Counted from the first letter of the stretch, positions 1-16,112 are shown. The stretch: 64,000 bases of DNA from an uncultured Candidatus Saccharibacteria bacterium (GCA_964361095.1 CAYHZA010000001.1:1456-65455), one strand, 5' to 3'. The notes: a model not told the origin generated them from the sequence alone. Numbers and translations are program-made.

Positions 1-141
1 AAATCTCGAAAGCCATTCGAGCTTGTATACTACGAAGCGTATAAGTCAGAAAGTGATGCTAGAAAAAGAGAGGCCAGCTTAAAGTTGCGAAGTCGAGCAT
101 TCGCACAATTGAAGAAACGTATAACCGACAGCACCAAGTAA
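1..141 (+). CDS. GIY-YIG nuclease (YhbQ/UPF0213-like), C-terminal fragment; 5' end lies beyond the window edge
   Basis: Frame 1 translates to KSRKPFELVYYEAYKSESDARKREASLKLRSRAFAQLKKR... This aligns with the C-terminus of the complete GIY-YIG ORF at 30512-30772 (RRPFELVYYEAYRAEDDARTREHNLKLRSNALNQLKRRLKK). Stop TAA at 139-141. Confidence 0.55.
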   Translation, partial: KSRKPFELVYYEAYKSESDARKREASLKLRSRAFAQLKKRITDSTK

Positions 142-154
142 TTTGGTGTGGGGG
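142..154. repeat. Right terminal inverted repeat TTTGGTGTGGGGG of the GIY-YIG mini-element family
   Basis: Immediately follows the GIY-YIG stop codon. Same arm as 222-236, 8486-8498 and 30765-30782. Confidence 0.6.
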
Positions 155-161
155 TAAACTT

Positions 162-389
162 ATGTCAAAGGAAATCGCCACTAAAACTGAGAAAGAAATT
201 CACCCCCACACCAAAGGGATTTTTGGTGTGGGGGTGTGCATCAAGTGCAAGAAGTGTGGCACTAAGGTTCTTTCTATTACGCGCGGTAGTTTAACCCCAT
301 GTAAGTGTGGGGCTATTTCTGTCGATGGCTCTAAAGAGTTAGTGAGAGTTATCGGTAAGCCAGAGGATTATGAAGAAATCCACAAATAA
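162..389 (+). CDS. Small zinc-ribbon protein (CxxCxxC...CxC) carrying an in-frame 36-bp palindromic insertion
   Basis: 75-aa ORF with Cys pairs CIKCKKCG...PCKCG. Codons 14-25 (HPHTKGIFGVGV) are encoded by the palindrome at 201-236. No clear RBS. Confidence 0.35.
   Translation: MSKEIATKTEKEIHPHTKGIFGVGVCIKCKKCGTKVLSITRGSLTPCKCGAISVDGSKELVRVIGKPEDYEEIHK
201..236. repeat. Solo (empty) hairpin copy of the CCCCCACACC element: cacccccacaccaaa-gggatt-tttggtgtgggggtg
   Basis: Perfect 15-bp inverted repeat with a 6-nt loop. Length 36 is a multiple of 3 and sits inside ORF 162-389. Confidence 0.7.
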
Positions 390-432
390 ATTTATGGCAA
401 GGAAATTATCAATAAAGTGGTAAAATGAAGGT

Positions 433-1281
433 ATGGCAAAAACTATAAAAATATTTTTGATTGACGGCGAACCTAACGGCCTAAAAACCGCTGAATTAAG
501 TAATTGGGTTGGTCAAGCAATCGTTATTCCTAGAAATAAACTTAAAGAAATAAAACAACGCCCTGAATGTAACAAGCCAGCAGTTTATTTTCTGATCGGT
601 AAAGAGAGCGAAGAAGCACTCTTGCCTACTGCATATGTAGGAGAGGCAGAAAATTTATGGAATAGACTATCTACTCATGATAGCTCAAAGGATTTTTGGC
701 AAACCGCAGTAGCGTTTGTGAGTAAAGATAATAATTTAACAAAAGCCCATGTTAGGTATCTTGAGAGTAGATGCTTAACTTTAGCAACTAAAGCAAAAAG
801 GTTTAATTTAGAAAATGGCACAGAATCATCTTTACCTTCTTTATCTGAAGCAGATATTGCCGAGATGGAAGAATTTTTGGAAAACCTGAAACTTTTGTTT
901 TCTGCTCTTGGCTACCCAATTTTGCAAGAAGTTATTTCTAAAGAACAAAAAAATATATCAGACCCTCTTTTTACTTGTAGGGGCAAAGATGCTTTAGCAA
1001 CTGGTCGTATGACAAACGACGGCTTTGTTGTTTATAAAGATTCAACCGCAACAACCGATATTTCGAAGGCAGTTATTGATCGTAATCAAAAAATTATAGA
1101 AAAGTTATTAAAAAATAATTATCTCGAAAAATTAAATGACGGCTTATATATTTTTGTTAAGGACTACGTCTTTAATAGTCCCAGTGCCGCATCTGATATT
1201 ACACTAGGCAATTCTACTAGCGGTTGGAAAAAATGGAAAACGGAAAGTGGCAAGACATTAGAAGAGGTTTATAGAAAATAA
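433..1281 (+). CDS. GIY-YIG (T5orf172-like) nuclease with C-terminal DUF4357-like domain
   Basis: N-terminal motifs VYFLIGK...AYVGEAENLWNRLSTH (GIY...YIG...R...H). The C-terminal tail SPSAASDITLGNSTSGWKKWKTESGKTLEEV matches the DUF4357 pattern as I recall it. Confidence 0.6.
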   Translation: MAKTIKIFLIDGEPNGLKTAELSNWVGQAIVIPRNKLKEIKQRPECNKPAVYFLIGKESEEALLPTAYVGEAENLWNRLSTHDSSKDFWQTAVAFVSKDNNLTKAHVRYLESRCLTLATKAKRFNLENGTESSLPSLSEADIAEMEEFLENLKLLFSALGYPILQEVISKEQKNISDPLFTCRGKDALATGRMTNDGFVVYKDSTATTDISKAVIDRNQKIIEKLLKNNYLEKLNDGLYIFVKDYVFNSPSAASDITLGNSTSGWKKWKTESGKTLEEVYRK

Positions 1282-1283
1282 AT

Positions 1284-3095
1284 ATGGGAAAGCTAAAAGA
1301 CATTCCAAAAATTGATAGACCGCGCGAACGATTCCTCCAAAAAGGAGCTGACGCACTTTCAAAAAGTGATCTTTTGGCAATTCTTTTAGGCAGTGGCATA
1401 AAAGGTAAAAATGTCAGGGAACTTTCAGAGAGTATTATCAAAAAATTTGGCAAAAACTTTTTAAATATAACCGTTGATGATCTTTTGGAAATTTCAGGGA
1501 TTGGCCAAGCCAAGGCATTACAAATTACTTCTGCAATTTCTTTGGTAAAAAGATTCTATGCGGACGAAAAATCAAACGAGACTATTATTAAAAATTCTCA
1601 AGATGTCCTATCATTCACCTACGATTTAAGAGATAAGAAAAAAGAACACTTGGTTTGTTTATACCTTAACGCAAGAAATTCTCTCCTCAAAAAGGAAATT
1701 GTTAGCGTAGGCTTACTAGATAAAACATTGCTCCATCCAAGAGAAATTTTTTATCCGGCAACAGAATTAAACGCCGCTAGTGTTATTTTAATTCACAACC
1801 ACCCATCGGGCGATTCTTCGCCAAGCGAAAAAGATAATCAAATTGTTGAAAAAATAGTTCAAGCAGGAGAAATAATGGGAATACCTGTTATTGATTTCAT
1901 TATTATCTCCGAAAATAATCATTATAGTTTTTATGAAAAACTAAGAAAGCAAAAAGAGACTTTTGATTATGTCGCTGACGGAATACAAGGGACACTCTTT
2001 GCAATATTTGAAGCTGAAAAACCAGCCTATGAAATAACTGCTGAAAAAATTCAAGAAAATTATTTCTACATCCCACAAGTAAAAGAAAATCACATCCAAT
2101 TACATAATCGCAGATATATAGGAAATAAACACAAACTAATTGAATGGATTTTTTCTATTATAAACAAAGAATGTAGTGGAAATTCTTTTGCAGATGTTTT
2201 TGCTGGGACGGGGGCTGTATCTGCTGTGGCGACAAAACACTTTAAAAAAGTATTATTAAATGATTTTTTACATTCCAATTACATAATATACCGTGCCTTT
2301 TTTGGAAAAGAAGCGTGGGACAAAAATAAGATAGATAGCATTATTAAGAGCTATAATAATATTTATGGCGGAGATTTAGAAGATAATTATTTTTCCAAAA
2401 ACTTTGGCGGTAAATTTTTCAGCAATAATTCAGCTAAAATTATCGGCTTTATTAGGGAAAACATTGAAGAAAACAAAAACAATTTAACGGAAAGAGAATA
2501 TTTTATGCTGATTGCGTCATTGCTTTATACGGCTGATAAAATCGCTAATACCGTTGGACATTTTGATGCTTATTTTAAAAAAGATTTTGTAAATGATAGT
2601 TTTTTCATGAAACCGATTGATCCGATTGATACCCAAGAAATATCTATTTTTCAAGAAGACACGAATGTTCTGGCAAAAAAGATAAAAGCAGATGTGGTTT
2701 ATATTGATCCGCCCTATAATTCCAGACAATACAGTCGTTTTTATCATGTACTTGAAACATTGACCAAATGGGATAAGCCAAAACTTTATGGAGTTGCGCT
2801 AAAACCAGATCCAGAAAATATGAGCGATTACTGCCGAGCTAATGCCAAAGAAAAATTTGCAGAACTTGTGAGAGATATTGATGCTCAATTTTTGGTTGTT
2901 TCGTATAATAATACATACGATTCAAAAAGTAATTCATCAAAAAATAAAATCACACTTCAAGAAATTGAAAAAATCTTACAAGCAAAAGGTAAAACGAAAG
3001 TTTTTGAAAAAAATTACAGACATTTTAATGCCGGTAATACAAATTTCAATAATCACAAAGAGTATTTGTTCGTAACTAAAAACCAACATGAATAA
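1284..3095 (+). CDS. Fusion protein: N-terminal RadC/JAB (JAMM) domain plus C-terminal Dam-like (D12 class) N6-adenine DNA methyltransferase
   Basis: RadC motifs include the HNHPSGDSSPSEKD JAMM signature and the helix-hairpin-helix-like ISGIGQAKA. The methyltransferase half has RRYIGNKHKL (Dam N-terminal motif), FAGTGAVS (motif I) and DPPY (motif IV). It is one continuous 603-aa ORF. Confidence 0.7.
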   Translation: MGKLKDIPKIDRPRERFLQKGADALSKSDLLAILLGSGIKGKNVRELSESIIKKFGKNFLNITVDDLLEISGIGQAKALQITSAISLVKRFYADEKSNETIIKNSQDVLSFTYDLRDKKKEHLVCLYLNARNSLLKKEIVSVGLLDKTLLHPREIFYPATELNAASVILIHNHPSGDSSPSEKDNQIVEKIVQAGEIMGIPVIDFIIISENNHYSFYEKLRKQKETFDYVADGIQGTLFAIFEAEKPAYEITAEKIQENYFYIPQVKENHIQLHNRRYIGNKHKLIEWIFSIINKECSGNSFADVFAGTGAVSAVATKHFKKVLLNDFLHSNYIIYRAFFGKEAWDKNKIDSIIKSYNNIYGGDLEDNYFSKNFGGKFFSNNSAKIIGFIRENIEENKNNLTEREYFMLIASLLYTADKIANTVGHFDAYFKKDFVNDSFFMKPIDPIDTQEISIFQEDTNVLAKKIKADVVYIDPPYNSRQYSRFYHVLETLTKWDKPKLYGVALKPDPENMSDYCRANAKEKFAELVRDIDAQFLVVSYNNTYDSKSNSSKNKITLQEIEKILQAKGKTKVFEKNYRHFNAGNTNFNNHKEYLFVTKNQHE

Positions 3096-3993
3096 CAAAA
3101 TCAAAAGGTCCCCGTTATTTTATGTCGGGGATAAATACAAACTAATGAAGCAATTGGTAAATTTATTTCCCAAAGAAGTGAATAATTTTTACGAACCTTT
3201 TGTTGGCGGAGGCACTGTATTTTTGAACATTGAAGCGAAGAAGTATTTTTTAAATGACATAAACAAACATCTGATTAACATACATAAGTTTTTGATGAAA
3301 AGCGCAGATAATCCAAGCTCGTTTTTTAAAAGCGTTGGAAAAGTAATATCCAAATATAAATTATCCAAATCTTACAAAGAAGATATAATTCCAGATTCAC
3401 TAAAAAAAGAATGGAAAAAAACTTATTTTGCCCGATTTAACAAAGAGGGATACGAAAAATTGAGAGTGTGTGTGAATAATAACAAAAAAAATGACCCTCT
3501 GATTTTGTATATTTTGCTTATATACGGGTTTAACAGAATGTTGAGATTTAATGGTGGTGGCAAATTTAATCTGCCTGTCGGGAATGTTGATTTTAACAAA
3601 AATGTAGTTAATGCCCTAAATGGCTATTTTGATTTTGTAAATAATAAGAAAATCACAATTACATCGAATGATTTTAAAAAGTTTTTTTTAGAGAAACAAT
3701 ATTTTAAAAATGATTTTGTTTATTTAGATCCGCCCTACTTAATAACCGCAAGCGAATATAATAAGTTTTGGGATTCAAAATCTGAATCTGACTTGTTAAA
3801 CTTAATCGATAATTTAGACAAAAGAGGCGTTAAATTTGCTTTATCAAATGTTACACATTACAACGGAAGCAAAAATGACCTTTTGATAGAGTGGATGGGA
3901 CAATATAAGGTACACAAAATTGAAAGCAACTATATTAGCTATCACAATAATGGGAAAAAGATAATCAAAGAAGTCTTGATCACTAACTATTAA
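3088..3993 (+). CDS. Dam-like (D12 class) N6-adenine DNA methyltransferase
   Basis: FYVGDKYKL N-terminal motif, EPFVGGGTVF (motif I), LDPPY (motif IV). Overlaps the upstream ORF by 8 nt, so operon-like. Confidence 0.75.
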   Translation: MNNKIKRSPLFYVGDKYKLMKQLVNLFPKEVNNFYEPFVGGGTVFLNIEAKKYFLNDINKHLINIHKFLMKSADNPSSFFKSVGKVISKYKLSKSYKEDIIPDSLKKEWKKTYFARFNKEGYEKLRVCVNNNKKNDPLILYILLIYGFNRMLRFNGGGKFNLPVGNVDFNKNVVNALNGYFDFVNNKKITITSNDFKKFFLEKQYFKNDFVYLDPPYLITASEYNKFWDSKSESDLLNLIDNLDKRGVKFALSNVTHYNGSKNDLLIEWMGQYKVHKIESNYISYHNNGKKIIKEVLITNY

Positions 3994-3997
3994 AATT

Positions 3998-5515
3998 ATG
4001 AAAAAACGACAATCCGAATATAAACCATTATTATTTACGACAACAATGAGAAATCCTGAACGACTAAAGGATTTTTTAACCGTGCTTGTTGAATATGATG
4101 GCGAAATTTTAACAAACGAAATTATTGATAAAGTAGCTAAAATCTTGATTCAAAAAGGGTTATATCAACCCATGAAAATAACGCAAGTAGTAAAAGGTAA
4201 ATGGAAAAACGAAATAGAACTAAGCGAGGCTGAAACCGAAAAAGTATTTGATGAGAATCCGCAAAGCCATAAAGAGGCAGGTTTTGAAAAAGGTTGGCCA
4301 TCGAGATTTGATACTTGGTTTAAAATTGCCAAAGAACTTGGTTTTGTTTGGTATTGGCCAAATGAAGAAATAAAATTTTCCGAAAGCGGGAAAATGCTAT
4401 TGGATAAAGAAAAACCTGAAAACGAATTGATGGTTTTTGCTAATGCTTTCGCAAAATATCAGCGACAAAATCCGTTTCGTAGAGTTTTAAATAAAAATGT
4501 ACCATTGATATTGCTGATACAAACAATAAAACTCCTAGACAATGACCCTGCCTATAATGGCACGGGTATTTCAAGGTTAGAAATTCCGTTATTGCTCTGT
4601 TGGCAAAATGATAATGCCGAAAGTTTATATCGTGAAATAAAAAAGTTGCGTAAAAAATATGGCTATTCGCCAAGCAATGAGATAGTTTTAGATCTTTGCT
4701 ATGAATTATTAAACGAAACCAAAAGAGACGATAATTCTATCTTAGGTGATTATCCCGATGATTTTATTCGCAAAATGCGTTTAACTGGTTTATTTTCTTT
4801 GCGTGGTGGCGGTCGTTTCATTGACATCAACACAAAAGAAATTGCGACTGTAAATTATATTTTAGAAAATTATATTTCTTATCCAACCTTTACGACTGAA
4901 AAAGATTATTTTGATTATATTGGCAAAGTGGACACCAATTTGATTGCAACGCTCTCCGTCTATGAAACTCCTGTTAGAACTACTAAAGCGGAGTTGGAAA
5001 AATGGGTAAATCATTATGCGTGGGAATCAATTAAAACCGAGATGCTTAATTTAGCGCAGAAAAAATCTTCCGAAGATGATATTTTGCGGGTGATAGAACA
5101 GCCTTTGCGTTTAGAGTTTTTAACCTCTTTGGCTATTCTCAAAAAATTACCAAATGTTGTAGTAAAGCCAAATTTTGTTTCAGATGATGAGGGTTTACCG
5201 ACAAGCTTTGCTTCTGGTGGAAACCCAGATATTGAATGTCTAGAAGATAAGGACACCGTATTGATAGAAGTGACTTTACTAACAGGCACACAGCAACATA
5301 TTAGAGAGTCATTTTCAGTACACCGACATCTTGAGGAGTATGTAAAGAAAGGCACTAAATCATATTCTGTGTTTATCTCCCCCAAATCTTTCATTGATAC
5401 TGAACGCTATTTTGATTTTATCAAAAAGGATGGTTTGGAAGTGAGAATTTCGAATATCGATAAATTCGTCCTCGGTCTTGAAGAAAAGACAACATTGAAC
5501 GAAGCGACTTTATGA
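3998..5515 (+). CDS. Candidate restriction endonuclease (type IIS-like, family unassigned; possibly AlwI-like)
   Basis: 505-aa ORF starting 5 nt after the second methyltransferase gene. The C-terminal segment GGNPDIECLEDKDTVLIEVTLLTG resembles a PD-(D/E)xK core. Two same-strand N6A methyltransferases upstream are typical of asymmetric-site type IIS systems. Family assignment is by context and memory only. Confidence 0.35.
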   Translation: MKKRQSEYKPLLFTTTMRNPERLKDFLTVLVEYDGEILTNEIIDKVAKILIQKGLYQPMKITQVVKGKWKNEIELSEAETEKVFDENPQSHKEAGFEKGWPSRFDTWFKIAKELGFVWYWPNEEIKFSESGKMLLDKEKPENELMVFANAFAKYQRQNPFRRVLNKNVPLILLIQTIKLLDNDPAYNGTGISRLEIPLLLCWQNDNAESLYREIKKLRKKYGYSPSNEIVLDLCYELLNETKRDDNSILGDYPDDFIRKMRLTGLFSLRGGGRFIDINTKEIATVNYILENYISYPTFTTEKDYFDYIGKVDTNLIATLSVYETPVRTTKAELEKWVNHYAWESIKTEMLNLAQKKSSEDDILRVIEQPLRLEFLTSLAILKKLPNVVVKPNFVSDDEGLPTSFASGGNPDIECLEDKDTVLIEVTLLTGTQQHIRESFSVHRHLEEYVKKGTKSYSVFISPKSFIDTERYFDFIKKDGLEVRISNIDKFVLGLEEKTTLNEATL

Positions 5516-5553
5516 TTGTAAAAAATTAGAATCAATTTACGAGAGCTAAATTT

Positions 5554-7461
5554 ATGGAAGATATTAAAGCAACAATTCACGGAGACGCTACAAGTGATCA
5601 AATTGAAGCAATTGACCACATTGGCAGTCATGCAAGATTACTCGCTGGACCCGGAACGGGAAAAACAAAAACGCTTACTCGGCGCGTACTTTCTTTGATT
5701 CTCCAACATAATGCCGACCCCGATTCAATTCTCTTACTTACGTTCACTCGTTTAGCCGCCGCTCAACTGAAAGATGAGATCAAAAAAGTGTTAGAACCTT
5801 TGGGCAAAACCATTCCACAAGTATCAACGCTTCACTCCTTTGCATTAAGGCAGATTCTTTATAATTCGAGCAGAATTGACACATTACCAAGACCAATCAG
5901 AATAGCCGATGACTGGGAAGAACGGTATATCATTCAAGAAGATTTAAAAAAAGTTTTAAATCTCAAAGAAATTGGCGATGTTCAAAAATTGATCAATCAG
6001 CTTTCAACTGACTGGGAAACTTTGAGAATTGATGAAATTGGCTGGGAGCAACAATTTCCAAACCCCGCTTTTCTTGGTGCGTGGCGAAGCCACAAAGATC
6101 AATATGGCGAAACACTAAGGGCGGAACTTGTTTATCAACTGAAAAAGCAGTTAAACCAAAGCAGGGATTTTCAATTAGACAAAGAGTATAAACATATTCT
6201 GATTGACGAGTATCAAGACCTGAACGCTTGCGATCTTGCCATAGTCAATGAATTAGCAAAGCGAGGCGCGGAATTATTTGTTGCGGGAGATGATGACCAG
6301 AGTATCTACGGCTTCCGTTTCGCAACCCCCGCAGGTATAAGAAATTTTGAACAGATATATCAAAATTCCAAAAAATTGGCGTTAGAAATATGTTTTCGTT
6401 GTGATAAAAACATATTACATTCAGCAGAATTTGTAGCGAGCCTTGATCCTGCACGCTTGCCAAAACCAACACGACCAAAAGACGAAGCTGAAGATGGTGA
6501 GGTTTTGATAATTGGTTTTAAGGATCAAAGTCATGAAGCTGAAATTATAGCCAAGAAAATAAAAAGTTTGATTGACGCAGACATCAAGCCAGATCAAATC
6601 ACAATTTTACTAAGAAACGACCGAAACAGCTTATTATCCAAGCCGATTATTGAAGCCCTAAAAAAGTATAGCGTCGATGTATCTTTGACGACTGATTCGG
6701 AATTAGAAAATAACAAGGAGTATCGAACAGTTTTATCAATAATTCGTTTGTTGGTTGATCAAAATGATTGTTTAGCTTGGCGAACATTATTACAAATCAA
6801 CAAAACTAATGGCTTGGGCGATGAGTGTATAAAAAGTATATGGAATTATGCGCAAAGCAAGGGAATACGTTTTAGTGTGGCTTTACAAAAAATAGCCGAA
6901 TCTCCAAGCGAATTACAAAAGTTTGGCCAAAAAATAGCAAAATTTGTTTCCGAAATAAACGTGGCAATCGTGGAACTCAAAGCCATTGAAAGTCCGACCG
7001 AAGCGATAAACGCAACAGTTGATAAATTTATGGGTGAAGGAGAGATAAAAGAACAAGTGAAAAAATATTTTGTTGGAATTTTGGAGAATCAAGAAAAACC
7101 TGATCTTGAGAATTTAATTAAAATAGTAAGTACTTCGTCGGAATATATTGAGCAAGAAACAAAAGAAAACGCTGTTAATATACTCACTATGCACCAAGCA
7201 AAAGGATTATCTTTTGATGTATGTTTTATAGTTGGTGCGGAAGATGAATATATTCCCGGACGAAATACAGGAGATAAGGAGGGCGATGAAAGAAGATTAC
7301 TGTATGTGTCCATGACAAGAGCGAGGCATAAATTATTTATCAGCTATTGTAATAAACGAACCGGACAACAAAGACATTCAGGAAGTAATAGCGGAACAGA
7401 AAAAAGAACATTAACCAGATTTCTTAGAGATTCCAAAATCCCAATAAAACAGGTAGAATAA
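5554..7461 (+). CDS. UvrD/PcrA-like superfamily-1 DNA helicase
   Basis: Walker A AGPGTGKT. Motifs LLLTFTRLAAAQL, DEYQDLN, and the C-terminal ILTMHQAKGLSFD...RRLLYVSMTRARHKL. Confidence 0.8.
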   Translation: MEDIKATIHGDATSDQIEAIDHIGSHARLLAGPGTGKTKTLTRRVLSLILQHNADPDSILLLTFTRLAAAQLKDEIKKVLEPLGKTIPQVSTLHSFALRQILYNSSRIDTLPRPIRIADDWEERYIIQEDLKKVLNLKEIGDVQKLINQLSTDWETLRIDEIGWEQQFPNPAFLGAWRSHKDQYGETLRAELVYQLKKQLNQSRDFQLDKEYKHILIDEYQDLNACDLAIVNELAKRGAELFVAGDDDQSIYGFRFATPAGIRNFEQIYQNSKKLALEICFRCDKNILHSAEFVASLDPARLPKPTRPKDEAEDGEVLIIGFKDQSHEAEIIAKKIKSLIDADIKPDQITILLRNDRNSLLSKPIIEALKKYSVDVSLTTDSELENNKEYRTVLSIIRLLVDQNDCLAWRTLLQINKTNGLGDECIKSIWNYAQSKGIRFSVALQKIAESPSELQKFGQKIAKFVSEINVAIVELKAIESPTEAINATVDKFMGEGEIKEQVKKYFVGILENQEKPDLENLIKIVSTSSEYIEQETKENAVNILTMHQAKGLSFDVCFIVGAEDEYIPGRNTGDKEGDERRLLYVSMTRARHKLFISYCNKRTGQQRHSGSNSGTEKRTLTRFLRDSKIPIKQVE

Positions 7462-7508
7462 CAATAGAAATTTAAAGTCCGCCGAAAAGTTTTGGGGGCA
7501 AAGCCCAA

Positions 7509-7561
7509 GCAGGCGGGCAAAAAGGAAGGGGGTTGGGGGGAAGGAATTTTTGCTCGCCTGC
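7509..7561 (+). terminator. Hairpin with G-rich loop downstream of the helicase gene (possible terminator)
   Basis: gcaggcgggcaaaaa ... tttttgctcgcctgc (14/15 bp) enclosing the loop ggaagggggttggggggaaggaa. No clear T-tract. Confidence 0.3.
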
Positions 7562-7609
7562 TTCCGTTCCCGTCCCGTTTGAGCAAAGAAAAATGATAAA
7601 ATAACTTTT

Positions 7610-8392
7610 ATGAAAATCAAATCAAAACCACAAATCCTAGAACGGCGGAAAGAGATCGAGCAGGAGCTCTTGGATATGCTCAAAGAAACAGAGAGCGATT
7701 TTACTCTGGATCATGTCCGGGACGTTATTTTCCATGAGGAAGACAACGACGACATGATGAAAGTCGTAGCCATGTTTGATCGCGGAGGAGACGCTTCGGA
7801 ATTGAGTAATGTTCTTGAACTCGTAACCGACGCCTGGAATTACTTTCCACATAAAGTGCTTGGTGGCATCTCTCCGGCGGAGAAATTACTAGAGCACCAC
7901 AATAAAACTAAACTTATGAAAATCAACAACACATTCAAACTCATCATCGCTATCATAGTCTCCGAGCTTGCCGGTATCATCGGCTCGGTGTTTACCACAC
8001 CATCCATTGCTGGCTGGTACGCTGGGATTGCGAAGCCTGCTCTTAATCCTCCGGCGTGGGTATTCGGACCGGTCTGGACGACGCTCTTTGCGCTCATGGG
8101 CATCGCGGCCTTTCTCGTCTGGAAGAAAGGGCTGGATCGCAGAGATGTAAAAATCGCTCTTGGCATATTCCTCGGCCAGCTGGTCTTGAACACGCTTTGG
8201 TCAATTATCTTTTTCGGTCTGCATAGCCCCGGCGGTGCGCTGATTGAGATCGTATTCCTCTGGCTCGCCATTCTCGCCACGATCGTTGCGTTTTATAAAA
8301 TCTCCAAACCGGCGGCGTGGCTTCTGGTGCCATATATTCTTTGGGTCAGTTTCGCGATGTACTTAAACTATGCGATCTGGGCATTAAATTAA
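7610..8392 (+). CDS. tspO: TspO/MBR family membrane protein with ~100-aa N-terminal hydrophilic extension
   Basis: C-terminal 160 aa read WYAGIAKPALNPPAWVFGPVWTTLFALMGIAAFLVW, LGIFLGQLVLNTLWS and WLLVPYILWVSFA. This is typical of TspO. Confidence 0.6.
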   Translation: MKIKSKPQILERRKEIEQELLDMLKETESDFTLDHVRDVIFHEEDNDDMMKVVAMFDRGGDASELSNVLELVTDAWNYFPHKVLGGISPAEKLLEHHNKTKLMKINNTFKLIIAIIVSELAGIIGSVFTTPSIAGWYAGIAKPALNPPAWVFGPVWTTLFALMGIAAFLVWKKGLDRRDVKIALGIFLGQLVLNTLWSIIFFGLHSPGGALIEIVFLWLAILATIVAFYKISKPAAWLLVPYILWVSFAMYLNYAIWALN

Positions 8393-8468
8393 GCAATTAT
8401 GACTCGGTGCAATTTGCTTAATATTTCTTTAGTTAAGCAAATCGTCCCACGCTCACAAATTTGGTTTT

Positions 8469-8499
8469 ACCCCCACACCAAAAACTTTGGTGTGGGGGT
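8469..8499. repeat. Solo hairpin copy of the CCCCCACACC element: acccccacaccaaa-aac-tttggtgtgggggt
   Basis: Perfect 13-14-bp inverted repeat with a 3-nt loop in an intergenic region. Confidence 0.7.
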
Positions 8500-8551
8500 T
8501 TACGGCTCGGACCGGATTCAACTGGTGGCAAACTCTTACTCTCGGTACAAA

Positions 8552-8789
8552 GCTCGCCCCGTTAGATAATTTCATATCTAACGGGGCGAGCCACCCCAGT
8601 AGTACAGCGAAGCTGACTACGGGGCAGGCAAGGGCAACCAAGTGGGGAATCAGGGGTTACAGGTTCTCGTACTTGGCCAGCAATCCTTTCACCCCGTTAG
8701 ATGCAAAGTTATCTAACGGGGTGAATCTGATCCAAAACCACGGTAGGATACCCCAGTAGTAGAACGTGAAGCGTTCACTACGGGGCAGG
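8552..8789. repeat. Two tandem ~136-bp units, each a long hairpin (CCCCGTTAGAT...ATCTAACGGGG) followed by a second hairpin (CCCCAGTAGTA...ACTACGGGGCAGG)
   Basis: Unit A is 8552-8628 and unit B is 8688-8789. The outer stems covary (gctcg/cgagc versus ttcac/gtgaa) while the inner stem is conserved. That pattern suggests a selected RNA or DNA structure. Confidence 0.55.
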
Positions 8790-8888
8790 TTTGTACTCCT
8801 CCGCCCAGTCAAAAGTTCGAAAATCGTTGAGCAGGGCGAGCTTTGGAGTCAATACAAATTACCCGGGAATGTGCGGCGCCCTGTTAAG

Positions 8889-8914
8889 GCGAAGGTTTTA
8901 ATTCGGGAGTAATT
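8889..8914. repeat. 21-nt motif GCGAAGGTTTTAATTCGGGAG(+NAATT), copy 1, upstream of lipoprotein gene
   Basis: Identical 21-mer recurs at 10002-10022. Both copies lie ~100 bp upstream of a start codon. Confidence 0.5.
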
Positions 8915-8917
8915 ACA

Positions 8918-8946
8918 TTGACATTTAGTACGAAGCGTGCTATGAT
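8918..8946 (+). promoter_or_regulatory. Sigma70-type promoter TTGACA-17-TATGAT
   Basis: ttgaca (8918-8923), a 17-nt spacer, then tatgat (8941-8946). An RBS aaaggaga lies upstream of the ATG at 8989. Confidence 0.6.
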
Positions 8947-8988
8947 GTTTTCGGCACTTAACTGATAATCAAAAAGGAGAAACGGGAG

Positions 8989-9411
8989 ATGAAAACGTCG
9001 AAAGGTATCGTATTGTTTTGTGCGGTATTGATCATCCTTATTTCGTCGGCATGCAGAGAAATAAAGATGGTTCTCTCGCCTGAAATGACAGAGGAAGCGA
9101 CTGTCGCTGATCTCGTCTACACGCCGTCAAATCACGGGAGCGACATCAGCCCGACCATGAACATGAACGGAGACCTCGGCGTTGCATTTACGAGTATCGA
9201 CATTTTGGAACGGTATGCAGTAGTCTTCCAGTGCCAGCATGAAAAGTTCATAGTCCAGAGCGACCAGACGAAAGCGAAGGAGCTTTGGACGCGCCTGAAG
9301 AAAGACCAGAAGGTGACCGTCAGATACAGAGAAAGATACGAGGAAACATTCGACGACGAGAAACTCGTCGAACGACGTCTGAAGAAATATGATTTCATCG
9401 ACGCCAACTGA
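8989..9411 (+). CDS. Small secreted or lipoprotein of unknown function
   Basis: N-terminal signal peptide MKTSKGIVLFCAVLIILISSAC (lipobox-like ISSAC). Good RBS. GC-rich relative to neighbours. Confidence 0.5.
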   Translation: MKTSKGIVLFCAVLIILISSACREIKMVLSPEMTEEATVADLVYTPSNHGSDISPTMNMNGDLGVAFTSIDILERYAVVFQCQHEKFIVQSDQTKAKELWTRLKKDQKVTVRYRERYEETFDDEKLVERRLKKYDFIDAN

Positions 9412-9446
9412 AGAGCGGCTGTTTCCTTCCCTTGGGGAACAACACG

Positions 9447-9470
9447 GGACAGGTACGAAAGTGCCTGTCC
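9447..9470 (+). terminator. Stem-loop ggacaggtac-gaaa-gtgcctgtcc followed by attttact
   Basis: 10-bp stem (one G-U pair) with a GAAA tetraloop, 36 nt after the stop of 8989-9411. Confidence 0.5.
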
Positions 9471-9640
9471 ATTTTACTATTAAAAATTATATTTTCTAAT
9501 TCTATTTTTACCTTACCCCAATCTACAGTTCTAAACGCGTCTAACAGATGGAACCAAAAAAACCAGCGGCTTAATGTCGCTAGTTTCTTGTTTTGTTGCG
9601 TGAGGAATCGAACCGAAGGTCGACGAATGACGATAAGGAA

Positions 9641-9699
9641 ATACTGAGCGTAGTAACGCGAATGTGCGAGGAAGTACTGAGCGCAACAGCGCGAATGTG
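9641..9699. repeat. Two tandem ~33-bp repeats (a[a/g]tactgagcg[t/c]a..a.cgcgaatgtg)
   Basis: Lies within the 640-bp non-coding region 9412-10054. Confidence 0.5.
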
Positions 9700-10001
9700 T
9701 ACTACTTAAAAAATCGCAGTCTCGAACGATCCGCCAGCTGGCGGAGAGAGTCGAATTTCTAAAGGTCCCAGAGGGATTGCGACTTGTATTCAAAATCGTT
9801 ACGCTTTTGAACAAGTCGGGAAACTGAGATTTGTAACCCCGCTATGCGCGGACAAATCGGGAGCCTACCCGCGGAGCTCGGAAATCAGATGCCCCTTGTT
9901 GGGGCATTTCAGATTTCGCTTCTTGGATTTGTGTATCAGATTTGGCAAAATAATTTCAAAAACTTGCCCCGTTGGAAGCCGTAGGCTTTCTTTCGGGGTT
10001 T

Positions 10002-10027
10002 GCGAAGGTTTTAATTCGGGAGCAATT
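10002..10027. repeat. 21-nt motif GCGAAGGTTTTAATTCGGGAG(+NAATT), copy 2, upstream of ABC exporter gene
   Basis: 21/21 identical to 8889-8909. Confidence 0.5.
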
Positions 10028-10120
10028 GATTTCTGATTATTTTATAATGGGTTTTTGTGCCACTCCGATCGGGCTCAATCTTTTTATTGCTTAGTTTTCA
10101 TGTTTTACTTACTAAATAGG

Positions 10121-11908
10121 ATGAATACGTCTATTGAGAAACAAGAAATAAAAACTGGTCTCGTAGCTATCTGGAGATTTGTGCGACCATTTAAAAAAGA
10201 GCTTATTATACTTATTATTTCTGGTTTAGTATCGGCAGTTGCCAATGGCTCCGTGCCTTATATAACGGGGCGATTCTTTGATGCCCTCATTAATGTATCA
10301 GAACATCGAATTGTTTCTGATGTCGGTCCTCTTCCTTTGTGGGCTTTCTTACTTTCCTTGTGGGCAATCATCCAACTTATCGCTAATAACATTGATTGGA
10401 TAAGTGATCGCTTAGCGCGTCAAGTAGATGCTAAGGTTCATTTTAATATTCAAACCCAAGGTTTTCTTCATCTCTTTCGTCTTCCACTTTCTTATCATAA
10501 GAGCAAACACATCAATGGAGAGTTGCAAAAAATAAGCGCGGCCGGTTGGAGGGTATCGAGCATTATACGGAACGTAATTGATATCGCACCACAGTTTCTC
10601 AGTATATTAATTGGTATTATCTTGTCTGCCAGTATTAATCTAATGCTGGCAGGCGTTCTTCTTATCGGAGTCCTTCTCTATGTGCTTCTTCTTATGAGAA
10701 TTCTTATGCCGGTCGCCAAAATAGATTTGGCTGCCCACCGTTTCTGGAACGAGAGTTGGGATGATTCAGCAGCAGCGGTGATGCAGATCGAAAGTGTTAA
10801 GCAAGCCACGGCAGAAGAGCATGAATCACAAAAAGTAAAGTCTGCGCTACTCGGTAAAACATACGACCTATGGCATAAGCTTGGAACTATTTGGAGTAAT
10901 ATTAGTTTTTTCCAGCGAATAATCGTCTTCGGGACGCAACTTGTGGTTTTTATTATGTCTGTTCAATTGGTGTCGAATGGAATAATCACTATCGGAGAAC
11001 TTCTGGCTTTGAATGGTTATGCTGCAATGTTCTTCGGACCATTCGTGTCGCTTGGTTTTAGCTGGCAGACAATTCAAAATGGAATCACTTCAGCCGTTCA
11101 CGTCAATGAAATATTCTCTGAGAAAACAGAAAAGTATATTCCCGAAAATGCCGTCGAGTTAAAGACATTAATCGGAAAAGTCATATTTGAAAACGTGACT
11201 TTTAGTTATGAATTGAATCAGCCGATAGTACTCAAGGATGTTAGCTTTGAAGTTCAGCCAGGTCAGGTTGTTGCTCTCGTTGGTGAGTCGGGGGTTGGTA
11301 AAAGCACGGCCATCTCGCTTATCTCTGGGTATAATTTTCCTACACAAGGCAAGGTGTTAATTGATGATATAGATACGAGGAAACTGAATCTAACCAGTCT
11401 AAGAAAACACATTGCCGTTGTTCCTCAGGAAGTGGCTCTTTTTAACGATACTATTAAGGCTAATATACGATATGGATCATTTGAGGCTAACGATGAGGAA
11501 GTTTTTCGTGTAGCTCGAGAAGCCCATATGGATGAATTTATACAAGCCCTTCCGGACAAATATGAATCTCTAGTGGGTGAACGAGGTATCAAGCTGTCAG
11601 TTGGTCAAAAACAACGAGTAGCCATTGCCCGAGCAATGTTGCGGAATCCGGCCATTCTTATTTTAGACGAACCAACAAGCGCTTTGGACGCAAAAACAGA
11701 GAAAATCGTCACGGAGGCTCTTGAAAAACTAATGACGGGAAGAACTACCTTTATCATTGCCCACCGACTCTCAACAGTTCGTAAGGCGAACGTTATTCTT
11801 GTATTTGAAAAAGGGAAAATCGTTGAGAGGGGAACTCATCAAGAACTTATAGAACGCGAGAAGGGTACGTATCTACACCTTTACGAATACCAGATTGGGC
11901 TACATTAA
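10121..11908 (+). CDS. ABC transporter, fused permease/ATP-binding exporter (MsbA-like)
   Basis: Six predicted TM helices. Walker A GESGVGKST, ABC signature LSVGQKQR, Walker B ILILDEPTSALD. The listed ORF begins with TTG at 10055. The internal ATG at 10121 (MNTSIEK...) is the likelier start. Confidence 0.85.
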   Translation: MNTSIEKQEIKTGLVAIWRFVRPFKKELIILIISGLVSAVANGSVPYITGRFFDALINVSEHRIVSDVGPLPLWAFLLSLWAIIQLIANNIDWISDRLARQVDAKVHFNIQTQGFLHLFRLPLSYHKSKHINGELQKISAAGWRVSSIIRNVIDIAPQFLSILIGIILSASINLMLAGVLLIGVLLYVLLLMRILMPVAKIDLAAHRFWNESWDDSAAAVMQIESVKQATAEEHESQKVKSALLGKTYDLWHKLGTIWSNISFFQRIIVFGTQLVVFIMSVQLVSNGIITIGELLALNGYAAMFFGPFVSLGFSWQTIQNGITSAVHVNEIFSEKTEKYIPENAVELKTLIGKVIFENVTFSYELNQPIVLKDVSFEVQPGQVVALVGESGVGKSTAISLISGYNFPTQGKVLIDDIDTRKLNLTSLRKHIAVVPQEVALFNDTIKANIRYGSFEANDEEVFRVAREAHMDEFIQALPDKYESLVGERGIKLSVGQKQRVAIARAMLRNPAILILDEPTSALDAKTEKIVTEALEKLMTGRTTFIIAHRLSTVRKANVILVFEKGKIVERGTHQELIEREKGTYLHLYEYQIGLH

Positions 11909-11988
11909 ATACTTGATGATTTTTAACTCTTCCCATATTCTCACCCACTCCATTGCTATAGACTTATCCAACAGGATGAGCAATCGTA

Positions 11989-12017
11989 TTGACAAATAGT
12001 ACACGCGGAGCTATTTT
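11989..12017 (+). promoter_or_regulatory. Putative promoter TTGACA-17-TATTTT
   Basis: Upstream of the zinc-ribbon ORF. RBS aaagggagg. Confidence 0.4.
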
Positions 12018-12050
12018 GTTTTTAGAACAAACATAAAGGGAGGTAACGCC

Positions 12051-12272
12051 ATGCAGTTTTGTTCGAAGTGCGGCGCGAGTAACTGGGAATATCTCAAAAG
12101 CGGAGGTTGCGGAGGAAACGGTCAGATCAAGGGCTGTAAGAAATGCGGTGCGGTTTTTGTGCAGAAGAGCGGTGGCATCGTCGCGACTCCCGGAGGCGAG
12201 ACATGGAGTCCTCTCGGCTACACCTTGGACGAGTATCGCAAGAGAGTTCCCGAGAAGCCCGCTCGGAAATAA
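12051..12272 (+). CDS. Small zinc-ribbon protein (CxxC...CxxC)
   Basis: CSKCG...CKKCG. Strong RBS. GC-rich. Followed by a conserved-loop hairpin. Confidence 0.45.
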   Translation: MQFCSKCGASNWEYLKSGGCGGNGQIKGCKKCGAVFVQKSGGIVATPGGETWSPLGYTLDEYRKRVPEKPARK

Positions 12273-12292
12273 CGCTCATCGTTTAATATTGA

Positions 12293-12322
12293 GACCGTAT
12301 GGTTCGCCCAGCGGTCTTTTTT
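12293..12322 (+). terminator. Hairpin gaccg-TATGGTTCGCCCAG-cggtc plus T6. The loop is conserved with 46594-46615.
   Basis: Stem sequences differ between the two copies but remain complementary. The 14-nt loop (t/c)ATGGTTCGCCCAG is identical apart from one position. Confidence 0.55.
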
Positions 12323-12439
12323 ATTAACCGCGCCAGCAAATCCAGAAGATGGACACTTTGACCTATCTATCGTATAGTTTTTCAAGTATAATCAGAAAAA
12401 TCATATACCTATCCACAAACTCTGCGGAGGATTATCGAC

Positions 12440-12787
12440 ATGCTTGTGCTTCTGGAAGCTCTGCTCTACAAGTTCGGTTTCAAGAAATTCTCGGTTGAAA
12501 AGCTCTATGCGAACTTCTTGAGCGGAGAATTGTCAGAGGATCAACTGCACCTGTTTTTGAAGATCCATCAGGTAAAAGACTTTACCGCGCTTCACGAGCG
12601 AGTGAAGAAAAATCTGGAAGAGGGAAAACACGATCCATGCCTGCTCACTTTGTTTCCCACGCTCTTGAAAGATCCTCGGCGCATGCATGTCGCTCTCTGC
12701 CAAGTTGATTGTGTAATCGAGCGAGACTTGGAGAAAGGCATCCTGCGGCGGAAAGGAAAGGGCAACGTCGTGAGGAGAACGGACTAA
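12440..12787 (+). CDS. Hypothetical protein
   Basis: 115-aa ORF with RBS gcggagg. No recognisable motifs. Confidence 0.4.
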   Translation: MLVLLEALLYKFGFKKFSVEKLYANFLSGELSEDQLHLFLKIHQVKDFTALHERVKKNLEEGKHDPCLLTLFPTLLKDPRRMHVALCQVDCVIERDLEKGILRRKGKGNVVRRTD

Positions 12788-12879
12788 ATGTCATAACACG
12801 ATCCGGTTGGTCCAAAGCCCGAAATTCTGCAGAGAATATTCGGGCTTTTGTTTTTATCGGGTGCCGGAATAATTTACTT

Positions 12880-13473
12880 TTACGCAATGAAACATTTTCT
12901 ATAAACGGAAAGAATCAATAGCATATTTACAGCAAGAAGATAGACTTGAAAACTCGCATTCTCGATATTCCAAATGGGAATTGAGGGTAAAACCAAAAGG
13001 ACGCTGACTAAACTCGCAACATAGGTCAGGCCAGTTTCTGTTTCCGGATTTGTCCAAGTCTTCTTGATAGTAGGCAGTGCCGCAAATCCGTCACCTGTAG
13101 CAGCAAGCACGATTGCGAGACGAGGAGAATCGGCAAGAATCCAAACAATAAGGGCTATGAGGGAAAGTGCTCCGCATATAAAATCAAAGATGCCAAGTTT
13201 CCAATAACTCTGCTTATTAAAAAAGGAGAAAAGCACCACAAGAAGAGGAATAAATCCGGCAAGAAATATTCGAACAGTTGCCCAGGGATCGGCATGAGCA
13301 TAAATAGCAGCTCCGGTTCCAATCAAGGGAGCAATAGCCCACATTGCCCAGGAAAGACGATTCGGCTTCGTTTTTCCTCTCAGAGTATCTCGAATATAGA
13401 CTGATGCCCCGGCAAGGGAAATAAAAGCACTTGCTATAACAAGCCAATGAACAAAGCTAATTGAAAATAACAT
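12880..13473 (-). CDS. Hypothetical multi-pass membrane protein
   Basis: 197 aa with about 6 hydrophobic helices. Confidence 0.5.
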   Translation of the reverse strand: MLFSISFVHWLVIASAFISLAGASVYIRDTLRGKTKPNRLSWAMWAIAPLIGTGAAIYAHADPWATVRIFLAGFIPLLVVLFSFFNKQSYWKLGIFDFICGALSLIALIVWILADSPRLAIVLAATGDGFAALPTIKKTWTNPETETGLTYVASLVSVLLVLPSIPIWNIENASFQVYLLAVNMLLILSVYRKCFIA

Positions 13474-13619
13474 ATTGCCACAATTATACTCCTAAAAGCT
13501 TTCAAGTTTCATCCTGGACGTTGAGCAAAATTAATTTACCCCGATGCGCGACTTTGGGCAGGCGTACCCCATATCCAAAAGTCGCTATTTAAGCACAATC
13601 GTGCTAAGGTGTATAGACA

Positions 13620-14021
13620 ATGAAGCCGGTTAATAAGGTAAAAATCGACTTAGATAAAAAGTTCCAAAAGGTGATAGAAACACCGGCGGGTTTTGATTTC
13701 TTTGTGGCAATTCATGATTTCGTTGAACACATTGAGTCGAACGCATCGCTTTCCGCCAGTCTTTCGTCCCGCGTGAAATTGAACCAAGAATTGAATATTC
13801 CCAATAAATACGCTTATTTGAAACAGATCTATCAAGGGCTCGAAGATGCCGAAACGAAATCAAATGCCGATTTGGGTCATGCGAGATACGCGGTGCTCAT
13901 AGAACTGAATCGGATCCGTGGCAAAGAGGTTTCGGAAAGCAATTCGTTTTGGAAAAAACGGGAACTGTTCAGGAGATTGACGAGCGAAATCTACCAGAGA
14001 TTGAATCCCACTACGGTATAA
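13620..14021 (+). CDS. Hypothetical protein
   Basis: 133-aa ORF followed by hairpins and a terminator. Confidence 0.45.
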   Translation: MKPVNKVKIDLDKKFQKVIETPAGFDFFVAIHDFVEHIESNASLSASLSSRVKLNQELNIPNKYAYLKQIYQGLEDAETKSNADLGHARYAVLIELNRIRGKEVSESNSFWKKRELFRRLTSEIYQRLNPTTV

Positions 14022-14023
14022 AT

Positions 14024-14090
14024 CCCGTTAGAAATCCGCCCTGTCTTGCTACGGGCGGCAGTTGCCTTTGGGAGGCTTGTTTCTAACGGG
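14024..14090. repeat. Long hairpin CCCGTTAGAAA...TTTCTAACGGG (member of the CCCGTTA-type palindromic repeats)
   Basis: 11-bp terminal stem around a structured 45-nt interior. The stem motif is related to the hairpins at 8556 and 8692. Confidence 0.45.
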
Positions 14091-14097
14091 ATAAATA

Positions 14098-14130
14098 AAA
14101 AATACCCCCGATTATCGGGGGTATTTTTTA
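14098..14130. terminator. Bidirectional rho-independent terminator aaaaaataccccc g-attat-cgggggtatttttt
   Basis: GC stem flanked by an A-tract and a T-tract. Lies between the convergent genes 13620-14021 (+) and csp (-). Confidence 0.7.
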
Positions 14131-14142
14131 AGTGTCAGCGAT

Positions 14143-14340
14143 TTATTCGCGTGACACGTTCGTGGCGCTCGGGCCCTTCTCTCCATCAACGACTTCAAAA
14201 GTGACGATATCGCCAACTTTAAGTTCGTCGAATGTTACACCTTGTAACTCCTTGGAGTGAAAGAAAAGGTCCTTCGTTTCGCCTTCACGGGTAATGAATC
14301 CAAATCCTCTATCCGTGAGTGTTTTTATGGTTCCTTTCAT
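14143..14340 (-). CDS. cspA: Cold-shock protein (CspA family)
   Basis: MKGTIKTLTDRGFGFITREG...DLFFHSKEL...GDIVTFEV. RNP1-like motif present. Confidence 0.9.
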   Translation of the reverse strand: MKGTIKTLTDRGFGFITREGETKDLFFHSKELQGVTFDELKVGDIVTFEVVDGEKGPSATNVSRE

Positions 14341-14503
14341 GCAATTTTGTTTTTTACCTAGAAATTCGACTACGTCTCTTGGTTTGGTTACCCTTTAATC
14401 ATACCAAAGATATACAATTTGTCAATCTTCGAGAAGTTTGGGCTAGTAAAAAACGACGCCCGGCTAAGTTTGACCGGGCGTCACGTTGGTGTTTCAGGCG
14501 AGC

Positions 14504-15601
14504 TCATAGGGTTATCCCCACGAGCTCGTCTGTCAGTTCATCCACAGAGAGAATGCGGTCAATACGCGCCGCATTTGTTCCTACCGTAAAGATAGGAAGA
14601 TCGGGAGTGTTATTGCAATCCACGGCACTGAGGAGCGCGTTGCAGATGCAGAATGCCTCATAACCTTCGAGAGCAAGACAAGTCATGCGGCCATCTTTCC
14701 CTTTGTGGAGCAGATATTGCTTATCGCAGACAAGTGGTCGTCCGTGCGAAAGCGCTTGTCGGTATCCCGGTGATGAATTGATCACGCGGAACGGCATGCC
14801 CGAAGGCGAGCCCGGATTCACCGCAACCTCGATGTCCTCCGCGCGCGCGGCAACGATGGCGCGTTTAAATTCTTCCGATGCGCCACTTTCGTGCGTTGCG
14901 GCAAAACGGGTTCCGATCTGTACACCATCGGCTCCGGTTTTGATCCAGTGCACGATGTCTTCGTGCGTATAGATACCACCCGCCACGATGACCGGGAAGT
15001 TGCCGTTTTTCTGTGCGGATTCTTTTACGGGTCCGAAGATCTCCTCCAGTTGAAATTCCGGCTTGGGAATATCTTCCGCCTTGAAGCCAAGGTGTCCGCC
15101 CGCAAGCGGTCCTTCGAGAACCACTGCGTCCGGCATTCGTCCGTAACGATTCCAGCGTCGACAGATAAGCTCCAATGCGCGTCCGGAAGAAACAATGGGA
15201 ATAAGCGCCACCTGCGCGTTTCCCACGGTTTCCGGAAGAGTCATCGGCAGACCTGCGCCGGCAAGAATGATATCTACTCCGCCTTCAAGTGCGCCCTCGA
15301 TAGAAGGAACATACGTTTTTTCAACGAGGACCATGCAATTGATCGCAATCGCGCCCTTATTTTCCGAAAGTCGCCTTGCTTCTTCGATTTCGAGCTTGGC
15401 GGCTTCCCGATGGCCCACCTTGAGACCAATTCTTCGCTCAACCATTTTGTCTAAGGCAACGAAGGATACTGTTCCGACGCCGCCTCTACGTGCAACTGCT
15501 CCGGCAAGACGCGCGAGCGATACGCCCGCGCCCATGCCTCCCTGGATAAAGATTACTTTGCGATCCAGGCCGCGGACGGCAATAGTCGGCAACGGCACCA
15601 T
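14504..15601 (-). CDS. Nitronate monooxygenase / NPD-family FMN oxidoreductase (FabK-like)
   Basis: IQGGMGAGVS motif and GADGVQIGTRF. The likely start is the internal ATG (MVPLPTIAV...), preceded by gagagggggg. Confidence 0.75.
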   Translation of the reverse strand: MVPLPTIAVRGLDRKVIFIQGGMGAGVSLARLAGAVARRGGVGTVSFVALDKMVERRIGLKVGHREAAKLEIEEARRLSENKGAIAINCMVLVEKTYVPSIEGALEGGVDIILAGAGLPMTLPETVGNAQVALIPIVSSGRALELICRRWNRYGRMPDAVVLEGPLAGGHLGFKAEDIPKPEFQLEEIFGPVKESAQKNGNFPVIVAGGIYTHEDIVHWIKTGADGVQIGTRFAATHESGASEEFKRAIVAARAEDIEVAVNPGSPSGMPFRVINSSPGYRQALSHGRPLVCDKQYLLHKGKDGRMTCLALEGYEAFCICNALLSAVDCNNTPDLPIFTVGTNAARIDRILSVDELTDELVGITL

Positions 15602-15764
15602 GGGTCTTAACCCCCCTCTCTTTTGAAGATGTAAATTAGGTTGCTGGTTTAAGCCTAACACTAGTCAAAAATATTGCGCAACGTGTATCTTCTATAGGGG
15701 TCTGTTTGGTGGCGTATGTTACTTTATTTCAAGGTTCGAAAATCCTGTGGTAGAATAGGTTTGT

Positions 15765-16112
15765 ATGAAACTTGAAGAACGGACGAATATCTCAGATTTT
15801 TTGTGGTTTTCGGGAAAATTCGTGCGTTTTCTCGCCTACGCTTCTCTGGTTTTTTTGTTTTCCGAAGGGCTTTTTCGTCACTGGAAGATCGCCGCGCACT
15901 CTTCTTTGCCCGAGCAGTTCGTTGTTGCCATTGCTTATGCGCTTTTTGATATTGCTGTAATTTCCGTGCTCTTGCTTAGTTTTTTCTTGGCAATCCAGAC
16001 GTATGTGACGTACAGGCGCTGGGTAGTCGTGGGTATTTTACTTCTCATCGTCGCCTTCGCCGCTCCGGAGGCGATGCGGAGCGCATTTGACTACTTCCGA
16101 GCGATTATTTGA
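15765..16112 (+). CDS. Hypothetical small membrane protein
   Basis: 115 aa with 3 hydrophobic segments. Confidence 0.35.
   Translation: MKLEERTNISDFLWFSGKFVRFLAYASLVFLFSEGLFRHWKIAAHSSLPEQFVVAIAYALFDIAVISVLLLSFFLAIQTYVTYRRWVVVGILLLIVAFAAPEAMRSAFDYFRAII

Follow-up and report, generated by a model that had tools for sequence, protein, structure and literature searches.

A probable AlwI-family type IIS restriction endonuclease within a compact restriction-modification cassette shared by distant bacterial phyla

We analyzed a window of 64,000 nucleotides from an uncultured Candidatus Saccharibacteria bacterium (GCA_964361095.1, CAYHZA010000001.1:1456-65455) and found that the gene at 3998..5515 on the plus strand very probably encodes an active type IIS restriction endonuclease of the AlwI family that belongs to a restriction-modification (R-M) cassette. 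Judged from the sequence, we put the probability of this reading at about 0.88. The ORF listing confirmed a 505-aa reading frame with an ATG start, exactly where a preliminary description of this DNA had placed it. The frame is not a chance one, because a homologue search returned 2461 database matches and because the dN/dS values against orthologues are 0.04-0.14. The preliminary description had left the choice between a novel enzyme and an AlwI-like type IIS endonuclease, and our searches bore out the latter. The "novel" option is unsupported because close homologues, 77-88% identical, are already listed as "AlwI family type II restriction endonuclease" at NCBI. The endonuclease itself is uncharacterised, but near-identical relatives are already correctly labelled in public databases.

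Profile searches, which had been proposed earlier as a check, were positive with two collections. The sole Pfam match of the endonuclease was RE_AlwI (PF09491), with 145.7 bits (gathering score, 23.1 bits; E 2.7e-42). The REBASE-derived PADLOC model REase_II PDLC03507, named "Type II restriction enzyme," aligned with residues 4-498 at an E-value of 3e-131, and two PADLOC models for a "Type II nicking endonuclease" matched more weakly (PDLC03393, E 2.8e-35; PDLC03394, E 5e-8). The NCBIfam search gave no matching model for the endonuclease. When the protein was compared with the sequences in the PDB, only the subunits of R.BspD6I were found, namely the small subunit (2p14) and Nt.BspD6I. The single sequence matched the small subunit at E 8e-11 and the Nt.BspD6I catalytic domain at E ~1e-7; when a profile of 49 sequences was used, the values were 8e-13 and 3e-11, respectively. 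The N-terminal domain gave two weak, collinear alignments with Nt.BspD6I in the same search.

Structure prediction, the other computational check suggested at the outset, was likewise positive. An AlphaFold2 model built from an alignment of 49 endonuclease homologues with 68-97% identity (alignment A1) had a mean pLDDT of 81.8 and a pTM of 0.78. When this model was searched against the PDB with Foldseek, Nt.BspD6I was the best match; eight of its chains came out on top (E ~1e-14, ~580 aligned columns), followed by 2p14. All profile and fold matches of the endonuclease were to restriction enzymes. The predicted two-domain architecture is that of the AlwI family. It consists of a mostly helical N-terminal recognition region (~aa 20-300; 4055..4897, plus strand), linker helices (aa 301-353; 4898-5056, plus strand) and a C-terminal catalytic domain of the PD-(D/E)xK type (~aa 355-505; 5060..5512, plus strand). 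An N-terminal DNA-recognition region had been postulated beforehand, and the model indeed contains a separate predicted domain of the Nt.BspD6I/FokI type at that place.

The catalytic core had also been placed in the C-terminal part by the preliminary description. This location was right, but the motif is noncanonical: it reads PD...E-V-T, with a threonine where a lysine is usual, as in Nt.BspD6I. The segment singled out in that description, GGNPDIECLEDKDTVLIEVTLLTGTQQ (residues 407-433; window 5216-5296), includes both D411 and E424. By alignment, E373 (codon 5114..5116) corresponds to the catalytic E418 of Nt.BspD6I, and D411 of the PD motif (codon 5228..5230) corresponds to the catalytic D456. 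E424-V425-T426 (codons 5267..5275) occupies the (D/E)xK position and aligns with E469-V-T471, and E437 (codon 5306-5308) aligns with E482; all of these codons lie on the plus strand. In making these assignments, we corrected for the numbering of the Nt.BspD6I crystal chains, which is native +6 (610-aa chains as compared to the 604-aa 6qnz chain). We take E424 and E437 to be probably catalytic as well, from the alignment and from the structure of Nt.BspD6I. Exchanging either E418 or D456 of Nt.BspD6I for alanine leaves a catalytically deficient enzyme (PMC6261011). E373, D411, E424, T426, and E437 are all invariant across the 49 homologues, and the endonuclease of the window carries every family-invariant residue, the catalytic ones included. 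Taken together, the protein is an intact, ordinary member of the AlwI/MlyI/PleI/BstNBI family, and it displays all AlwI-family features that are testable in silico.

The best 120 of the 2461 homologues are 68-97% identical to the endonuclease and nearly all 503-512 aa long, and where NCBI has named them, the name is "AlwI family type II restriction endonuclease." These named relatives come from Kuenenbacteria, Falkowbacteria, Flavobacterium, Firestonebacteria, Deltaproteobacteria, Melioribacteraceae, and Margulisbacteria. An exhaustive search of 50%-clusters yielded 689 representatives, 117 of them below E 1e-30, with identity declining smoothly from 68% to ~30%. Among species-representative genomes, a relative of the endonuclease is encoded at 24 loci. 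By the Nei-Gojobori method, dN/dS came to 0.04-0.14 for each half of the protein, and dS was >1 in most comparisons. This implies strong constraint, and it also means that the similarity is not merely due to very recent transfer. Genes with 30-41% identity are also present in plasmid records, where their annotation is AlwI family. A Staphylococcus epidermidis plasmid (41% identity) shares the gene order of the window, with an adenine methylase, a Dam-family methylase and then the endonuclease, but has no RadC module, and on a Helicobacter plasmid it is placed between the two methylases. The phage records that we searched gave no matches to the endonuclease.

The endonuclease gene is the last of three genes in a sharply bounded block, preceded by a RadC-methyltransferase A fusion and by methyltransferase B. 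The window segment 1276/1283..5517 forms a single homology block in 14 complete loci (tblastn, blastn), and the products of the three genes there are 74-98% identical to the window proteins. The tight linkage of the endonuclease to a methyltransferase pair, noted in the preliminary description, was kept in all 14 of these loci. The gap to the upstream gene had been given as 5 nt and is actually 4 nt (AATT, 3994-3997), the TAA stop codon of methyltransferase B lying at 3991-3993; the two methyltransferase genes overlap by 8 nt. DNA homology stops at the endonuclease stop codon in ~20 genomes, with nothing kept downstream. The cassette has spread through Patescibacteria, Proteobacteria, Nitrospirae, Margulisiibacteriota, and other groups.

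The two upstream genes had been described earlier as Dam-like methyltransferases. Both do carry N6-adenine methyltransferase domains of the D12 class and the second belongs to the Dam family, but the first is a fusion with a RadC/JAB module. Methyltransferase B (301 aa; 3088..3993, plus strand) matched Pfam MethyltransfD12 at E 5e-32, the NCBIfam model TIGR00571 dam with 150.2 bits (cutoff 114.85), and the PADLOC model MTase_II PDLC03383 at E 2e-107. It is similar to T4 Dam (E 4e-43) and to DpnM (E 8e-22). The fusion protein (603 aa; 1284..3095, plus strand; Pfam UPF0758_N, RadC, and MethyltransfD12) begins with a RadC module made up of UPF0758_N, i.e., the HhH part, and the RadC JAB domain (aa 1-219; 1284-1940, plus strand) and continues with a D12-class methyltransferase (~aa 269-599; 2088-3080, plus strand). 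The best-matching PADLOC model for this methyltransferase, PDLC03373 (339 positions), covers only residues 269-599, i.e., the methylase part, for which we found no PDB relative below E 1e-3. The fusion matched the NCBIfam RadC equivalog above its cutoff (218 bits) and the RadC homologue 2qlc from the PDB at E 7e-26, and the HNHPSG...D motif of its JAB domain is intact. By Pfam and NCBIfam, both methylases are intact.

No stop codon interrupts the fused reading frame at any of the 14 orthologous loci, the same Pfam architecture is present in >120 database clusters, and the database proteins include a 100%-identical match. Cluster names vary between "DNA repair protein RadC," which is the commonest and is wrong, and "adenine-specific DNA-methyltransferase." The fused two-domain methyltransferase models PDLC03292 and PDLC03287 of PADLOC (722 and 646 positions) are collinear with A followed by B; their first half matches methylase A and their second half methylase B. 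The methylases in the window are encoded by two separate ORFs rather than as one fused chain.

A fourth gene upstream of the cassette is optional. It encodes a 282-aa DUF4357/RAMA protein (433..1281, plus strand; Pfam DUF4357, E 9e-19) that also gave RAMA and GIY-YIG matches below the Pfam cutoff and that corresponds to the PADLOC candidate defence gene PDC-S14 (E 1e-106). The gene ends 2 nt upstream of the RadC-methylase gene and accompanies the cassette in 5 of the 14 complete loci, where the homology block extends left to 432. At one further locus (L024), a 58% identical copy of the 282-aa protein lies immediately downstream of an endonuclease remnant. Further upstream, a cysteine-rich DUF7695 protein of 75 aa is encoded at 162-389, and a G+C-rich hairpin with a 15-bp stem is located within its coding region (201-236, minus strand).

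The GC content is 0.29-0.35 over the cassette and 0.45-0.50 beyond 7.5 kb. On a broader scale, it is 0.29-0.40 at window positions 1-7500 and 0.45-0.54 over 7500-16000, and a defence islet gained by horizontal transfer would be consistent with this low-GC left end, which includes the cassette. Beyond the endonuclease, a UvrD/PcrA-like superfamily 1 helicase is encoded at 5554-7461, 38 nt past the endonuclease gene. Its best PADLOC matches were GajB and a DRT-associated helicase, with no GajA-like partner. This helicase gene was absent from the vicinity of the cassette in all ~20 other genomes. A TspO/MBR protein follows at 7610-8392, with its domain at residues 114-257 and an acidic N-terminal extension of ~110 aa. 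Between the helicase and TspO genes, we observed a G-rich intergenic element (7479-7542) with the inverted repeat GTCCGCC...GGCGGGC. This element recurs at locus L018 at 94-97% identity, once per orientation, and at L014 at 81%. It gave no Rfam and no tRNA match and is possibly a short repeat of the dispersed kind. A promoter and terminator scan of positions 1-8000 yielded no more sites than shuffled sequence, and tRNA and Rfam searches over 1-12000 found none, so that they gave no integration-site or regulatory-RNA clue.

At four related loci (L014, L016, L019, and L021), a common module stands in place of the methylases and of the initial 70-100 endonuclease codons; it is located at 590-3345, ~1487-2648, 5868-7029, and 5840-7005, respectively. 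The module consists of a 305-aa PLD-family nuclease (PLDc_2/NgoFVII N-terminal PLD) and an ORF of ~90 aa, and L014 additionally carries a Schlafen-AlbA_2/HATPase_c_4 protein. The right junctions of the replacement all fall in one short stretch of the endonuclease gene (window 4233-4309), and the left junction varies. The endonuclease remnant at L019 is frameshifted. This arrangement looks like one defence cassette swapped for another.

In the mechanism that we propose, the N-terminal helical domain, whose architecture is that of the Nt.BspD6I and FokI recognition domains, would read a short asymmetric site, and the catalytic domain (E373, D411, E424, and E437) would cut on one side of it, at a distance of a few base pairs. 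For the second strand, another endonuclease molecule would make the cut in a transient dimer formed through the catalytic domains, as in AlwI, MlyI, and FokI, and the two adenine methyltransferases would protect one strand each of this site. By analogy with these relatives, the endonuclease probably cleaves both strands as a homodimer, a mode that we favor because the cassette has no separate small-subunit gene. AlwI and MlyI have one catalytic site per chain and dimerise for the double-strand cut, and BstNBI/BspD6I combines a large nicking subunit with a small subunit of 186 aa that has its own gene (PMC3017599, PMC4081073). No small-subunit gene (~186 aa) adjoins the endonuclease gene, the next gene being the unconserved UvrD-like helicase, and tblastn detected no paralogue of the catalytic domain in the 64-kb window. 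Having no such gene, the endonuclease does not belong to the heterodimeric BstNBI subtype, which is defined by it.

That no small subunit is encoded nearby would also suit a natural nicking endonuclease which, like the large subunit of BstNBI/BspD6I on its own, cuts a single strand. The nearest solved structure is that of a nickase, Nt.BspD6I, the PADLOC nicking models match too (PDLC03393, E 2.8e-35; PDLC03394, E 5e-8), and Nt.BstNBI is an AlwI-family member able to nick alone. We nevertheless consider a nickase unlikely. The "Type II restriction enzyme" model fits far better (E 3e-131 versus 2.8e-35), the chain is 100 aa shorter than Nt.BspD6I, and, of the two R.BspD6I subunits, it is the small one that its catalytic domain resembles more. 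The nicking of Nt.BstNBI, moreover, accompanies a small-subunit partner in vivo (PMC3017599, PMC4081073). A nickase would be expected to form a weak barrier, yet the endonuclease is under strong purifying selection alongside two methylases.

The homodimeric restriction enzyme that we favor was also weighed against two readings other than active classical restriction. A decaying cassette, in which the nuclease no longer cuts and the methylases persist as orphans, is very improbable: the endonuclease of the window is full length with all invariant residues in place, including the catalytic ones, its dN/dS is 0.04-0.14, and both methylases are intact. Decay does occur in related cassettes (L014, L016, L019, and L021, with the frameshifted remnant at L019), and GmeIP, a GGATC-type relative, is listed with activity unknown (PMC3526280). 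It is scarcely probable that the endonuclease acts with the RadC module and the UvrD-like helicase in repair or in another form of defence instead of in classical restriction. A role in nucleic-acid processing has been suggested for RadC domains (PMC5512222), and the UvrD/GajB-like helicase gene begins only 38 nt downstream. But the helicase is found next to the cassette in none of ~20 other genomes, the trio of endonuclease and two methylases exists without RadC, e.g., on the S. epidermidis plasmid, and the profile and fold matches of the endonuclease all point to restriction enzymes. We rejected a helicase-linked or repair function because conservation of the cassette does not extend to the UvrD-like gene.

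As for the recognition sequence, our best guess, which we hold tentatively and at somewhat short of even odds, is a site containing GATC, e.g., GGATC. A GATC-type site is favored because methylase B resembles T4 Dam and DpnM and because the two methylases are collinear with the fused AlwI-type methylases. R130 of T4 Dam contacts a guanine of GATC. When methylase B is aligned with T4 Dam, K11, M114, R116, and P126 are conserved and R130 is a valine, so the site may be different from plain GATC. A GCATC-type site seems unlikely, and some other sequence accounts for the remainder. Homology does not fix the site of an AlwI-family enzyme: for one such enzyme from Caldicellulosiruptor, REBASE predicted GASTC by homology and the actual site is GCATC (PMC9799307). 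The weak alignment of the N-terminal domain with Nt.BspD6I suggests a different target. That there are two strand-specific methylases, and not a single GASTC methylase as for MlyI, argues for a truly asymmetric site.

Two further routes to the site were tried. Named homologues did not help, since the ten 50%-cluster representatives and the plasmid matches are annotated at the level of the AlwI family only. For k-mer avoidance, we calculated maximal-order Markov observed/expected ratios (O/E) of every 4-, 5-, and 6-mer, both for the window and for a total of 200 kb of flanking DNA pooled from 14 cassette-bearing genomes. GGATC, GAGTC, GCATC, and GGATG showed no depletion in the window or in the flanks; the O/E of GGATC was 0.85-0.88 (z ~-2) in the window and 0.98 in the pooled flanks. 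Avoidance of type IIS sites is often weak, and with none of the candidate sites depleted, this approach was uninformative. The most depleted 5-mers in the window were GCAGC/GCTGC, a BbvI-type site (O/E 0.33, z -7.5), and CCAGG/CCTGG, a CCWGG-type site (O/E 0.48, z -5.2). Both were depleted in the pooled flanks of other cassette-bearing genomes as well, and these site types suggest that other R-M systems exert pressure.

The RadC-methylase fusion is the only unusual, unexplained element of the cassette. The RadC/JAB module may have a role, for instance in processing nucleic acids or in balancing methylase and nuclease after horizontal transfer; if real, such a role would explain the near-unchanged cassette across very distant phyla. 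Rather doubtful, in our view, is the joint reading that the endonuclease has a new recognition sequence or cleavage geometry and that RadC/JAB supplies a functional fourth activity. The unusual aspects, the RadC fusion and the cross-phylum spread, are peripheral to the endonuclease itself. The cassette is a clean example of an R-M unit spread across phyla and opens no new biological question. The endonuclease could provide a new specificity or a nicking-enzyme scaffold for biotechnology, although its practical value is modest.

Among known systems, the family profile and published descriptions liken the cassette to those of AlwI (GGATC 4/5) and EacI/GmeIP, which belong to the same RE_AlwI family. 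Like the cassette, these combine a single-chain endonuclease with two adenine methylase activities of the D12/Dam type, one per strand, and the transient homodimerisation of AlwI (PMC3017599) would be expected, by analogy, for the endonuclease of the window too. They differ in having one fused double methylase, whereas the cassette has two overlapping genes, the first with an N-terminal RadC/JAB module. M.AlwI, M.EacI, and M.GmeI each hold two domains in one chain and make GGm6ATC and Gm6ATCC (PMC3526280, PMC4081073). R.BspD6I/BstNBI (GAGTC 4/6; 2ewf and 2p14) is the best match in structure and in PDB sequence over both domains; overall identity between Nt.BspD6I and the endonuclease is 18-23%, however, the endonuclease is ~100 aa shorter, and R.BspD6I has a small-subunit gene that the cassette lacks. 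MlyI, a GAGTC-type relative, has a single GASTC methylase (PMC4081073), in contrast to the two strand-specific methylases here. FokI shows no detectable sequence similarity to the endonuclease and belongs to a different Pfam family. Lastly, the SfaNI-like system of Caldicellulosiruptor (GCATC/GATGC; R.Cal02329, M1, and M2), likened to the cassette by its published description, has an operon that encodes an AlwI-family endonuclease together with two adenine methyltransferases as separate proteins (PMC9799307).
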